Assembly (NCBI RefSeq): GCF_022045235.1
Contig: NW_027266297.1
Span: 4,650,001 to 4,714,000 of the forward strand
Reading direction: 5' to 3'
Origin: Haliotis cracherodii
Taxonomy: Eukaryota
Length of the DNA: 64,000 bases
A model generated the notes under the pieces. That model made no database searches and was not told the origin of the DNA. It was given only the letters and a program-made list of their open reading frames with translations. Each line of letters starts with the position of its first letter. The first letter of the stretch is position 1. This document shows, piece by piece, positions 50,355 through 54,438 of this stretch. A program made the position numbers and the translations under genes.

Positions 50355-53300
50355 TCATTGTTTTTTGGTGAACACAACCTCAGTTGCCTTTGCTATGACA
50401 TAGAGAAATGCCCTCTCCTCCTTTTGCATCCTCGGTAAGATGTTCTTGATCTGGGGTAGGAAGAAGTGTGGCACCACTATCTCTCCTGTCATCATCTTCT
50501 GGAACTTCCGGAGACAGTCCTGAAATCTTGCAGCCATTGTTTCCTGCTTCCAAACATGCTCCCCTGCTGTAAGAACATACAGCTGCCACCACATGAGTGT
50601 TCTGATGTGGTATGTCGTCAGTCGGGAGGAACGCAGTTTAGGATTCTGCTCCTTGACATATCTCACTGCTTCCTGGATCTGCACGAGTTCTGGACTCTTA
50701 CCCTTGGCACAACAATCACTGTTGCCTTTTGCAATTTCCAAGATTCTTTTCAATGTTCTAAGTGACGGTTTCCAAGAAATCTTGTCAGCATGTTTGGTGA
50801 TGGCCTTCTCTGCATAGGAAAAGGAAACTTGCCACTGGAGGTCTGGATATTTTCCTTTAAAAAAAATGTTTCAAGGAATTCATCAGATATGTACATTTGC
50901 TGTTCCAAACAAACAGTTCAACAGTTGACCATGAACAATTCCTATTATCTGTCTAAGTAAGTGAACATGATGCAGAAGAAAGCCCAAAATAAGCAGGACC
51001 AATGAGCCCACTTATGGCGCTGATCTAGAAACACTACCAGGGCGAATCTGTTATTCGAATCTTCGATCATTGGTTTCAGGCGCGCCTAAGGGACGCAACT
51101 CTGCATCGCATTCAGTAATGGCTATTATCCGTAGGAGGGTTCCTATTAGAAAGAAAGGGAATGATGTTTGCGCAGTGTAATAAGGTATAGTTTTGCCCTG
51201 AACCATAAAGTTAAATCAGGAGGACTATACATGGGCACAGCCAACCTTTTCAGTTTTCTTAGATGCTGAATCATCTTATGTTTATTGGAGATGGGTTTAA
51301 TATCAAATCCGCAATAAACGGGACCATAAATTGAAAATCCCTGAACAGGGCTAATTGCCGGTTCTGTTTCACCTAATTGCCTGTAGTCTATTGTTAAGAG
51401 AAAAATTGTACATTTTAAACATGATAAAAACACCACTATTATTTATAAGTCCCAGTTATTAACCGTTAATATATGATTATCAATAATAAATAAGTTTTAT
51501 ATCAATTGGACACAGTTAAATCAAATCAATGCAACTGCAGGTCATGAAACAATGTGCTTACCGAGTTGGTTACACTTAATGATATCGCAACCGACGTGAA
51601 TCGAAGGCGAGGGGCGTGATATGGCCATGCTATCGCCATGGGACGAACAAGGCAGAGGTAGAGGTAGAGCAACAGCGGTCGTTTTGTTTGACTCCAGTAT
51701 TTTGGCTAAATGCCCTATGCTGAGCAACAGGTTTACATGGTGTCATGAAGCTCTTCAATGACCTGCCATGCCTATGTTCAGACACAATCATAACATTCCT
51801 ATGTCACCAACACCCGCCTTGGGCAACTTTGTGGCTGTTGTGGCATGGAATAACCCTGTGGCGTGAGAGATAGCTCATATCATCTTGCCATATTTCTTCC
51901 TTGGGAATAATGTCCAGTAATTCGACACGTTTGAACTATTTCACAATGCACCACCTTGCTTGACAGTAATGAAAGAACGTTTTTCAATGATACGTTAGAT
52001 CATGGGGAGGTAATTTGAACAGCGTCATGACGTCAGCACATAATGACGCACCTGAAAAAGTGTACTTTCTCTCAACGGAAAGACAGTCGCCTCCCTTGAA
52101 CTTTTGGTGAAGCATAAATATGTTTCAGCACATAAATACTAACCTTGATTCTGTTGCTTCGGTGTTACATTGAATCCGTTTTCCTTAATTGATGCAGCTT
52201 TAGCTTTGTCCGGGAGGATGTCTTCAATGTCCCGGGAAACGTTCTTTCTTGGCCAGGGTTTAATGTTTAAGGATGGCACAAAGTCAATGTCAATACTTTT
52301 CTTCCCTTCCTCAGATGGAATACCCTCATATCTGACTGCAAAAGACTGTGAATCTTTGAACTTGCGAGCATCTGAAACAAAACGTATCTGTAGTGATATG
52401 TGTTTCCTGCTTGTAGTAAGATCTTAGCCTCAAATGTGTCAAGTTTATAAATTGATGTTGCGTCTCGTAAACAATAGATTTATACAACCGTGCGTACATC
52501 ATACTGACAGACATTTATGAACTTGAAAATGTGACATAAATCAACTAACCCTTTAACTTTCTATCACTCTCAAGAACACGTTCAAGTTTCTCAAAGACGT
52601 ATTTCCTGAACTTTTCAGAGTTAACAAAACCTCCATCAAGGAATAGCCGGAGATCCTCCTCGTGGTCATCCACGACACTGACGACCTTCACCTTGCAGGT
52701 TCCAGCTTCGCAGGGGTCATCAAACACAGCCTCAAGTTTGGTCTTAAGAATTGGGAACATTGTGCAGTCCATTTCATTTGGTCGAGCCACCTGTAGAAGG
52801 ATGTGACTCATAAATCTATTTTTTCATGTCAGTGTTCTTACGTCACGTGTTAAAAATATTAGAATTCCCAAATGTACGACAAACAATATTTGTAATAACT
52901 TTAGGAAACAAAACCTTATATTGCAATGATCAAATTCTTACCTTAGTTCCATCGAAATGCGACCCTGCATTGCAAGCCTTCCATGTCCCAAAGTTCATCT
53001 CACTGTTTAGTCGTCCTAAAATCTTTTCCCTCACCCACTTAAAGTGCACCAATGCTTGCTGGATGTCCTTCTGCTCCATCTTAACTTCATTTTCAAAAAA
53101 ACTTTTGATGTCCTTTTTTGGATCGTCAGAGTTCCGAATGATGTTTCTCTCGACCATCTCTTTGACCAATGCATCCATCTCCCATATATCTGTGTATTCT
53201 GTTTCTGCGTCTGTGGAACAAACGTAGCCATTCCTTGTTGCATCATCGGAACGCCATGCACCTGCAACGGTACCCGCTGAGGCTGATGGTGTGGTAGATC

Positions 53301-54438
53301 GCCCAGCACCTTCACCTGCCGAGACTGATGGTGTGATAGATCGCTTAGCACTTTTCCCCGCTAAGATTGATGGTGTGGTAGATCGCTCAGCACCTTCACC
53401 TGCTGAGACTGATGGTGTGGTAGATCGCCCAGCACTCTTCCCCCCTGAGGCTGATGGTGTGGTAGATCGCCCAGCACCTTTACCTGCTGAGGCTGATGGT
53501 GTGGTTGATCGCCCAGCACTCTTCCCTTCTGAGGCTGATGGCGTGGTAGATCGCTCAGCACTCCTCCCCGCTGAGGCTGATGGTGTGGTAGATCGCTCAG
53601 CACTCTTCCCCACTGAGGCTGATGGTGTGGTAGATCGCCCAGCACTCTTCCCCACTGAGGCTGATGGTGTGGTAGATCGCTCAGCACCTGCACTTTTACC
53701 TGATGAGGCTGATGGTGTAGTAGATCGCCCAGCACTGTTCCCCGCTGAGGCTGATGGTGTGGTTGATCGCCCAGCACTCTTCCCCGCTGAGGCTGATGGC
53801 GTGGTAGATCGTCCAGCACTCTTCCCCGCTGAGGCTGATGGCGTGATTGATCGCCCAGCACTCTTCCCCGCTGAGGCTGATGGTGTGGTTGATCGCCCAG
53901 CACACTTCCCTTCTGAGGCTGATAGCGTGGTAGATCGTCCAGCACTCCTCCCCGCTGAGGCTGATGGTGTGGTAGATCGCTCAGCACTCTTCCCCACTGA
54001 GGCTGATGGTGTGGTAGATCGCCCAGCACTCTTTCCCGCTGAGGCTGATGGTGTGGTAGATCGCTCAGCACTCCTCCCAGCTGAGGCTGATGGTGTGGTA
54101 GATCGCTCAGCACTCCTCCCCGCTGAGGCTGATGGTGTGGTAGATCGCCCAGCACTCTTTCCTGCTGAGGCTGATGGCGTGGTAGATCGCTCAGCACTCT
54201 TCCCCACTGAGGCTGATGGTGTGGTAGATCGCCCAGCACTATTCCCCACTGAGGCTGATGGTGTTGTAGATCGCCCAGCACTATTCCTTGCTGTGACTGA
54301 TTTTGTACTTGATCTCCCAGATGTACGAGACTGGGGGACGGAGGAAGCAGGGACGGCTGTTCCCTTCTCCTTGCACCTCCATTCGTGAGACGCAAGGCGT
54401 TGAAAGCCCTGTCCACAGTGGGGGCAGACCTCACTCAT
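50355..54438 (-). CDS. cGAS-like receptor 'cGLR-B2' (C2HC finger + ~25 basic 14-aa repeats + Mab-21 NTase), ~821 aa
   Basis: Exons 54438-52942, 52790-52550, 52371-52144, 50854-50355. Same motifs and splice sites as B1; no stops or frameshifts seen. Confidence 0.87.
53270..54320 (-). repeat. Coding 42-bp minisatellite (GRSTTPSASAGKSA) in cGLR-B2
   Basis: About 25 units visible in both the DNA and the translation. Confidence 0.95.

Follow-up and report, generated by a model that had tools for sequence, protein, structure and literature searches.

Gene structure of the locus

The window, that is, the whole 64,000-nucleotide stretch of Haliotis cracherodii DNA analyzed here, carries on its minus strand a spliced gene, copy B, with a minisatellite inside its coding sequence. 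The 3’ end of its upstream exon, which contains an ATG (55293..55297), is the loose end of a spliced contig from run X7; exon 1 (52942..54463) contains a second ATG at 54438, a C2HC finger motif, the repeat and the start of the core with the GS loop; exon 2 (52550..52790) contains the catalytic E-x-D, exon 3 (52144..52371) the third catalytic Asp, and exon 4 (50355..50854) the helical Mab-21_C lobe and the stop codon, all four being delimited by splice joints. Translation from the upstream ATG yields an isoform of 831 aa that starts with MNTQ, and this model is the same as the stored protein P0001.

The spliced exon structure was seen in contigs of four runs guessed to be RNA (X7–X10; none is recorded as RNA, and transcript content was judged from splicing). 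Contigs extend into both ends of the copy B array and none spans it completely, the reads being short. Since the spliced contigs have the copy C type of base at 50744, their source may be copy C, the tandem twin, rather than copy B. Removal of the whole tract as a cryptic intron is unsupported, because the spliced contigs enter the array from both sides; part of it may be skipped in transcripts. Two other open frames over the array were rejected as genes: a plus-strand frame of 386 aa (53228-54388), whose synonymous bias is explained by third codon positions common to the true frame, and a minus-strand frame of 357 aa (53361-54434).

Judged by its sequence, the core of copy B is an intact cGLR. 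The Pfam domains Mab-21 (NTase core, E 4e-15) and Mab-21_C (C-terminal helix bundle, E 5.5e-9) both scored above the cut-off, the best PDB sequence match was Cv-cGLR1 (E 8.5e-18, 24% identity), and the predicted fold aligned with 8gjw over 336 residues (Z 34.1, rmsd 2.6; Foldseek E 5.7e-20), tied with cGAS (4k96, Z 33.6). The catalytic signature of cGLRs, a G[S/G] loop and an [E/D]h[E/D]...[E/D] triad, is present in P0001 as G502-S503, E515-M-D517 and D619; G502, S503 and D517 are invariant across 26 aligned proteins, and in the alignment with porcine cGAS D619 falls in the region of the third Asp. In place of the strict h[QT]GS and 50-90-residue pattern there are N-A-G-S and 101 residues before the third acidic residue; as the alignment shows that the proven member Cv-cGLR1 also has no Q/T before GS, strict h[QT]GS is not diagnostic. 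The core pI is 9.25, above the criterion of 8.5 for nucleic-acid-sensing cGLRs given in the accessible part of PMC9980059, where the oyster Cv-cGLR1 / Cg-cGLR1 is described as dsDNA-activated, with 2’3’-cUA as its product (see also PDB 8gjw). The genome contains a STING ligand-binding domain and at least three Pfam Mab-21 matches, a lower bound because of introns. A literature search, with subscription papers mostly out of reach, found nothing on the repeat or on H. cracherodii cGAS.

The finger motif, C-x2-C-x9-H-x3-C (54373..54426, minus strand), is predicted to be folded (pLDDT about 78) and, from codon changes, is under strong purifying selection: 28 codons compared between copy B and paralogue E contain 12 synonymous and 3 non-synonymous changes (p 6e-9). 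An ESM Atlas search with the finger returned, at 0.91-0.92, nothing but clusters without a name and a single cluster in which 16% of the members bear Sgf11; longer proteins that contain the finger were also searched for, and only the three Haliotis proteins emerged. C2HC fingers of the same spacing bind DNA or proteins (PMC10445727, accessible part).

A coding minisatellite between finger and core

Between the finger motif and the Mab-21 core lie minus-strand units of 42 bp encoding RSTTPSASAGKSA(G/E). The copy B array (53260..54273) comprises 24 such units, one of them of 48 bp, and encodes a weakly basic, Ser/Thr/Ala/Gly-rich tract of 338 aa; a degenerate lead-in unit precedes it (54274..54315). 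The sequence-only reading had placed a repeat of 25, 24 and about 5 units between finger and catalytic domain, and these numbers agree with ours, as there are 24 full units in copy B, 23 in copy C and 4 in copy A, each plus one degenerate lead-in unit. That the tract is minisatellite-built and coding, in a spliced cGLR gene, was likewise borne out, as was the absence of frameshifts: 70 parsed units (4 in A, 9 in P1, 10 in P2, 24 in B and 23 in C; see below) contain neither a frameshift nor a stop, and their sole change of unit length is a 6-nt insertion common to B and C. A 24-nt unit pattern with at most one mismatch had 51 matches in the 1.18-Gb genome, all within the window, and its reversed control had none in the same genome.

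The copy B tract contains 44 K/R and 12 D/E, hence a net charge of +32; each unit has one Arg and usually one Lys (net charge about +1.3). The tract is thus positive, as had been claimed, but only modestly so, with +0.095 per residue. High enrichment in Lys/Arg is one mark of a cGAS-type regulatory N-terminus. Ser/Thr make up 41% of it, and its 338 residues include no aromatic one. The tract is predicted to be intrinsically disordered, in line with the earlier expectation: pLDDT is below 50 for residues 36-422 and high for finger and core, and charge-hydropathy places the tract on the disordered side, although a shallow alignment in the repeat accounts for part of the low pLDDT there.

Related copies and instability of the locus

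Copy C (57817..62717, minus strand; 23 units at 61693-60722) is nearly identical to copy B: over 2906 bases 3’ of the repeat the two differ by 5 mismatches. In the array of copy C, unit 7 combines units 7 and 8 of copy B, one unit having been lost in register. Copy A (42550..45710, minus strand) has an open frame of 553 codons with only 4 units (45545-45378). Two arrays overlooked by the sequence-only reading are located upstream of it, both on the minus strand and outside any intact reading frame: P1 (45946..46573; array at 46411-45996) has a duplicated splice acceptor, an ATG, a finger and 9 full units, with a stop after 200 codons, while P2 (46834..47298; array at 47298-46834) has 10 full units without ATG or finger and sits in sequence upstream of exon 1, with a short duplicated motif on its flanks. 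The copy A locus is rearranged, P1 and P2 being displaced repeat blocks.

The counterpart of copy A in H. rufescens has 22 units and the B-like gene of that species 27, so intact genes of the two species have 24, 23 (H. cracherodii B and C), 27 and 22 units; together with the hybrid unit 7 these numbers document in-frame gain and loss of units. The unit number does differ among paralogs, as had been stated, but the intact H. cracherodii genes differ only as 24 and 23, and the large difference is due solely to the rearranged copy A. The proposal that length is a tuned variable fares poorly for the same reason, since intact genes span 22-27 units. Copies A and B also show homogenization, dS being 0.02 in exons 2-4 and 0.34 in the core part of exon 1.

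Contigs of DNA run X5 speak against an assembly artifact at B/C and P1/P2: they match the A-specific sequence exactly and extend across the P1 junction. The depth steps of this run point the same way (about 1: A, 15.8, and a more divergent E-like piece, 17.1; about 2: B/C, 32.6-38.1, and the junction, 36; about 4: the finger, 61.2), but together these observations are no more than a weak hint, since depth does not measure copy number and the assembly may itself derive from the X5 sample. In run X4 A-specific sequence was found as one short piece only (depth 3.4), and such a gap proves nothing.

Constraint on the units

Because the units are not independent, we preferred a tree-based test to NG86, which gave ratios of 0.45 (B) and 0.59 (displaced blocks) for units against the consensus. 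In the tree-based test 22 of the 49 changes in B units were synonymous, with 17.9 expected (p 0.14); the values were 29 of 62 for the pooled A, B and C arrays (p 0.03) and 18 of 48 for the displaced blocks (p 0.25). Constraint on the unit sequence is thus weak. Frame keeping does not speak for selection in this case, as the displaced blocks keep the frame too, and a stop-free array is expected by chance about one time in five. The three non-unit indels seen in intact genes each have a length divisible by 3, but annotated proteins are pre-selected for open frames.

T/S-P is present in 23 of the 24 copy B units, so the claim of T-P in most units stands, whereas that of a selected phosphosite does not fare well: S/T-P turns up in 46% of shuffled units, so that its occurrence per unit is not exceptional for the composition, and it is lost in many units of the A lineage, where unit position 5, Pro in 61 of the 70 units, shifts to Ser; the A-like N-terminus of H. 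rufescens has 14 S/T-P for 22 units. In the copy B tract [RK]-x-[ST] occurs 23 times against 17.9 +/- 3.1 expected, which is within chance, and S/T-P-x-K/R does not occur.

Origin of the array

Sequence comparison indicates that the array grew by expansion of a 14-aa proto-repeat, which in decayed form is retained in the neighboring paralog E, where adjacent segments share 29 of 42 bases, and in H. asinina, whose protein has 20 self-matches at lag 14 and 3-9 at the other lags from 10 to 18. In a duplicate of the neighboring E-type gene, most of the 600-residue N-terminus was likely lost, after which the proto-repeat behind the finger would have expanded and been homogenized by unequal exchange; this order of events is our inference.

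The net charge of the N-terminus is +0.06 to +0.12 per residue in all ten Haliotis proteins measured, whether they have the minisatellite or not, and positive in 21 of the 23 other homolog rows. Among these mollusc cGLR N-termini C2HC/C2H2 finger motifs occur in 15 of 23 rows and internal repeats in 14 of 23; the distant paralog D (29538..37555, plus strand) has an N-terminal repeat of different, 34-aa units with eight C2HC fingers. The basic disordered N-terminus is a trait older than the minisatellite. The earlier comparison with the cGAS N-terminus holds for position, charge and predicted disorder, but the word convergent needs care, because this gene family already had a basic disordered N-terminus, and the array took its place.

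Possible function of the tract

Our preferred reading, with a probability of about 0.5, is that the in-frame coding minisatellite gives rise to a linker of about 340 residues, weakly basic and by prediction disordered, that likely serves as an avidity tether for long nucleic acid, probably double-stranded DNA. The ligand would be contacted in several places, by the finger, by the Arg/Lys of the units and by the basic core, so that less of it would be needed for activation; the activated core would go on to synthesize a cyclic dinucleotide that acts on STING. Phosphate groups on the regularly spaced R-S-T-T-P sites could offset the slight positive charge and weaken binding. Probably the exact unit number and unit sequence matter little, and bulk length and charge matter. 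The persistence of N-terminal charge across Haliotis sequences with and without the minisatellite suggests such a tether. Against it count the low net charge and lack of aromatic residues, the weak constraint on the units, four donor-like AG|GTRA sites in the array, and the predominance of dsRNA sensing among active cGLRs (7 vs 2; PMC9980059, accessible part).

The abalone protein can be compared with several known systems. The N-terminus of vertebrate cGAS is not known to be a tandem repeat or to carry a C2HC finger. Vertebrate cGAS resembles the abalone protein in fold, in a disordered Lys/Arg-containing, Ser/Thr-rich tract before the core and in a similar spacing of candidate phosphosites, those of human cGAS being about 13 residues apart; the two differ in that the cGAS tract comprises residues 1-160, half the length of the abalone tract, which has only a weak charge, and in that phase separation and phosphorylation are demonstrated for cGAS only (PMC8171060, accessible part). 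Cv-cGLR1 shares the basic core and, as its solved chain starts at residue 288, a long N-terminal part, but the abalone core is only 24% identical to it, and the accessible part of PMC9980059 reports no 14-aa minisatellite for it. Other mollusc cGLRs (Haliotis paralog D, P0022/P0050, Nucella, Mytilus, Solemya) also have a long basic N-terminus; their repeats mostly multiply the finger itself, in units of 34-52 aa, whereas abalone B and C kept one finger and multiplied a fingerless 14-aa linker unit. C17orf80 (MTNAP1) has the same finger spacing at its N-terminus followed by a long disordered region, and the entire protein shows no sequence preference in binding dsDNA, though the accessible parts of PMC10445727 and PMC10484793 do not map this binding to the finger; it is a mitochondrial membrane protein without an enzyme core, likened to the abalone finger by spacing alone.

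The array could also be a tolerated spacer, a mutable minisatellite grown by slippage in a region that need only stay open and unfolded, with its charge without effect on sensing. We consider this possible, if doubtful: the weak constraint on the units, the similarity of displaced blocks to coding units, the instability of the locus (B/C duplication, one-unit loss, A rearrangement, A-B homogenization), the unrelated repeats in other mollusc N-termini and the similar unit numbers of two close species, which may be plain inheritance, are all consistent with it, but the retained positive charge per residue, the small synonymous excess in the pooled arrays and, with the above caveat, the three indels in multiples of 3 argue for more than a spacer. 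A tract with this mucin-like composition might instead be a long leash or a platform for modification, such as O-linked sugars on Ser/Thr, with which the finger would hold a protein partner or membrane site at a distance from the core, the tract making no nucleic-acid contact. The far stronger constraint on the finger than on the tract, the binding of proteins by some fingers of this spacing and a hydrophobic segment in the replaced E-type N-terminus would fit, yet this segment scores just 1.2-1.85 on a 19-residue window, and we regard such a leash as very improbable.

The sequence-only reading had proposed that the tract drives DNA-induced phase separation, that each T-P is a phosphosite and that through unit number paralogs and alleles have different activation thresholds. 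Position and sign of charge are as in the cGAS N-terminus, the 14-residue period is close to the 13-residue spacing of human mitotic phosphosites, nearly every unit has an R-x-T in agreement with the Aurora B consensus (PMC8171060, accessible part), and unit number varies (24, 23, 27, 22, 4). This model is nevertheless unlikely given the narrow range in intact genes, the decoy acceptor, ATG and stop of P1 upstream of the 4-unit copy, the B/C type of the exon-1 pieces listed for two of the runs guessed to be RNA, and the chance-level motif counts and drift of position 5 described above. Equally hard to credit is a bolder version, in which a minisatellite served abalones of the North Pacific to build a cGAS-like regulatory tail anew, the 14-residue units being charge-plus-phosphosite modules and unit number (4 to 27) together with copy number a heritable dial, as part of a wider tuning of mollusc cGLRs by expansion of finger and linker modules.

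Meaning for the family

The N-termini of invertebrate cGLRs are little studied in the literature found, though those of molluscs are often long, basic, finger-bearing and repeated. Should the tail have no effect, this would be no more than a common type of coding minisatellite, in an immune gene cluster that is unstable. Here the birth of a disordered domain can be traced to a decayed proto-repeat. The locus also offers a natural series in which one and the same core follows a tail without repeats (E), 4 units (A), 22-27 near-identical units (B, C and the H. rufescens genes) or a repeat of fingers only (D). With this series one can readily test whether the sensitivity of the sensor depends on the charge, the length or the phosphosite spacing of its disordered tail.

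Repeat arrays and transcript support

Tandem Repeats Finder identified five arrays in the window that share one 42-bp unit, all on the minus strand: those of the cGLR (cGAS-like receptor) gene copies A (45394–45573, four full units parsed), B (53273–54301, 24 units) and C, the tandem twin of B (60735–61721, 23 units), and two displaced blocks upstream of copy A, P1 (45996–46411, nine units) and P2 (46834–47298, ten units). The unit length is 42 bp throughout the 70 parsed units, except for one 48-bp unit common to B and C, and stop codons are absent from all 70 (five arrays, minus strand). 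A single degenerate lead-in unit is present in every gene as well, so that the 5, 25 and 24 units counted in the sequence-only reading correspond to 4, 24 and 23 full units plus one. All 51 matches to the unit pattern in the 1.18-Gb genome lie inside the window. On the plus strand, antisense frames of 386 codons (53228–54388) and 372 codons (60690–61808), encoding acidic 14-residue units, are open across the arrays of B and C, probably as a by-product of shared third positions.

Copy B has exons at 54463–52942, 52790–52550, 52371–52144 and 50854–50355 (minus strand), all with splice joints in contigs. Joints with CT..AC ends mark all of its three introns in contigs from runs X8, X9 and X10, and two of the three in X7; these four runs are guessed to be RNA, X9 and X10 being from another organism. 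An X7 contig joins an upstream exon to exon 1, and the model including this exon equals the stored 831-aa protein P0001. The X7 contig crossing intron 1 reaches 53265 and then runs 37 letters further into the array; short repeat contigs are also present in this run, and no contig of the runs examined spans the whole array of copy B. The repeat is in frame, coding and spliced. Position 50744 has the C-type base in all four runs, and therefore the spliced transcripts may come from copy C rather than B. Four donor-like AG|GTRA sites lie within the array (53699, 53483, 53399 and 53315, minus strand); splicing at them could give a shorter tract or a product without the core.

Unit number and the rearrangement of copy A

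The unit-number contrast from which the sequence-only reading derived a length-tuned activation threshold traces to copy A, which is rearranged and probably damaged; the intact genes (B and C of H. cracherodii and those of H. rufescens) have 22–27 units. The B-like protein of H. rufescens has 27 units and the A-like one 22, including in-frame 16- and 15-residue units; orthology was judged by the linker between repeat and core, because homogenisation has made the cores alike and these forks are not settled in the core tree. Over the 2906 bases compared 3' of their repeats, B and C differ at five positions; in the repeat itself, C has lost one unit in register.

In copy A, P2 and P1 sit between the upstream exon (donor at 47827) and exon 1. 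P2 lacks an ATG and is bordered by a short duplicated motif; P1 comprises a duplicated acceptor, an ATG, the finger and its nine units, with a stop after 200 codons. The units of P1 are A-like at the start and P2-like at the end, which fits an array that was partly displaced and then underwent unequal exchange. Because the P1 acceptor comes first after the upstream exon, copy A is likely impaired. Among the pieces listed (200 further pieces exist), the exon-1 pieces of X7 and X10 are B/C-type.

The 853-aa NCBI model P0003 fuses the blocks P2 and P1 (45946–47298, minus strand) with copy A as a single finger-less protein; no supporting joint was seen in the stretch examined, which took in neither P1 nor P2 whole. 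Between A and B, dS is 0.02 in exons 2–4 (42550–44866 and 50355–52790, minus strand) and 0.34 in the core part of exon 1, a sign of gene conversion; dN/dS in exons 2–4 is about 1, on few changes. At 44780–46030, the DNA run X5 shows both A-specific sequence and the P1 junction, and run X4 shows hardly any of the former and none of the latter, a weak hint that the copy number of A varies among individuals.

Properties of the finger, tract and core

The tract (residues 66–403 of P0001) contains 44 K/R and 12 D/E among 338 residues (net +32), 41% Ser/Thr and no aromatic residues. AlphaFold2 pLDDT is below 50 for residues 36–422, about 78 in the finger and mostly 85–96 in the core (26-row alignment). 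As few sequences cover the repeat in this alignment, these values are soft evidence of disorder, which charge-hydropathy also backs; the disorder of the tract and the fold of the core are both predictions.

The cGLR core is intact: that of copy B has both Pfam domains, Mab-21 and Mab-21_C, and the residues G502-S503, E515, D517 and D619, its pI is 9.25, and its top PDB match is 8gjw, oyster Cv-cGLR1, with cGAS tied within 1 Z. The finger, C-x2-C-x9-H-x3-C, is conserved, with 12 synonymous and three non-synonymous differences from the neighbouring paralogue E over 28 codons. The accessible parts of two papers describe the same spacing for C17orf80 (PMC10445727) and its binding of dsDNA (PMC10484793); the likeness compared is that of spacing alone. 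Exons of a STING ligand-binding domain lie on another contig (G000:C67:47801011-47803092), so that H. cracherodii joins the abalones with STING; according to the accessible part of PMC11103948, H. rufescens and H. discus hannai have it and three other abalones lack it.

Possible role of the tract

We favour, at a probability of about 0.5, the reading of the tract as a tether. Finger and tract would bind nucleic acid, their joint binding would add avidity, phosphorylation would damp it, and the signal would pass to STING. A tolerated spacer is a possible, though less probable, reading, and the selection tests bear on it. Counted on a minimum-spanning tree of distinct units, 22 of 49 changes in copy B are synonymous (null 17.9, p 0.14), as are 29 of 62 in A, B and C together (null 21.5, p 0.03), whereas P1 and P2 have 18 synonymous changes of 48 (null 15.4, p 0.25); the chance of zero stops is about 0.2 in each set. 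Ser6 and Gly10 are invariant in 70/70 14-residue units of three intact genes, where position 1 is Arg in 65/70 and position 5 Pro in 61/70.

The rheostat of the sequence-only reading, with T-P phosphosites in a cGAS-like basic tail, is unlikely given the unit numbers of the intact genes. S/T-P occurs 23 times in copy B, yet all as copies of one unit, and turns up in 46% of shuffled units; S/T-P-x-K/R was not found in the copy B tract, and [RK]-x-[ST] was observed 23 times versus 17.9 +/- 3.1 expected. The human cGAS N-terminus is described, in the accessible part of PMC8171060, as disordered, Lys/Arg-rich and promoting phase separation, and as carrying eight mitotic phosphosites at a spacing of about 13 residues, including two Aurora B sites; the match of this period to the 14-residue unit is suggestive, not more. 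The abalone tract resembles the vertebrate cGAS N-terminus in where it lies, in its predicted disorder and in the sign of its charge, a likeness of form from which a shared function may or may not follow. A leash for a protein partner seems still more doubtful than the rheostat. Paper listings and abstract openings yielded no published description of this locus or of cGLR N-terminal repeats.

Origin of the repeat and N-termini of other mollusc cGLRs

Two relatives of the array genes have a proto-repeat: paralogue E (P0015, with its ATG at C34:4742118) and P0019, which is its counterpart in H. asinina, both open with the finger of A, B and C, followed by a decayed repeat of equal period. In E, 29 of 42 bases are common to adjacent segments; P0019 has 20 self-matches at lag 14 versus 3–9 at the remaining lags of the range 10–18, a count that is not distinct in E. 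After the proto-repeat both N-termini (608–669 residues in total) contain two further fingers and a long basic region that is not repetitive; of these parts, the proteins of H. rubra have just the non-repetitive region. The core tree places H. asinina and H. rubra on one side and H. rufescens and H. cracherodii on the other (100/99). The simplest reading is that a duplicate of E would have shed the middle part of its N-terminus as its proto-repeat grew. Net charge per N-terminal residue is +0.06 to +0.12 in all ten proteins measured. E (G000:C34:4727427-4742118, L009-L010), with its three fingers and proto-repeat, also has a moderately hydrophobic segment, found in H. rubra and H. asinina as well; by hydropathy it is a possible but weak candidate for a membrane anchor.

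Another repeat occurs in paralogue D (29538–37555, plus strand), where a 102-bp repeat encodes eight C2HC fingers in 34-aa units; its H. rufescens counterpart P0048 has seven fingers, and the cluster member P0050/P0022 five and four, in 52-aa units. Intron 1 of D contains a GC-rich segment (30800–32200) that we take, by eye, to resemble a decayed Tc1/mariner-type transposase. A leucine-rich-repeat exon (20892–21647, plus strand) and an RNase H fragment (26107–26643, minus strand), both found by Pfam, are unrelated to the repeat finding.

Forty-three protein rows, with named sources including Haliotis, Nucella, Mytilus and Solemya, were examined; five were of the A/B/C type, 15 were dropped (GS motif not found or N-terminus below 60 residues) and 23 were left, which include isoforms and orthologues and are not independent. 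The N-terminus is net positive in 21 of the 23, at least one finger motif is present in 15, and an internal repeat, with a score of double or more the highest from 20 shuffles, in 14. Repeat growth in cGLR N-termini is therefore a recurring pattern in molluscs.
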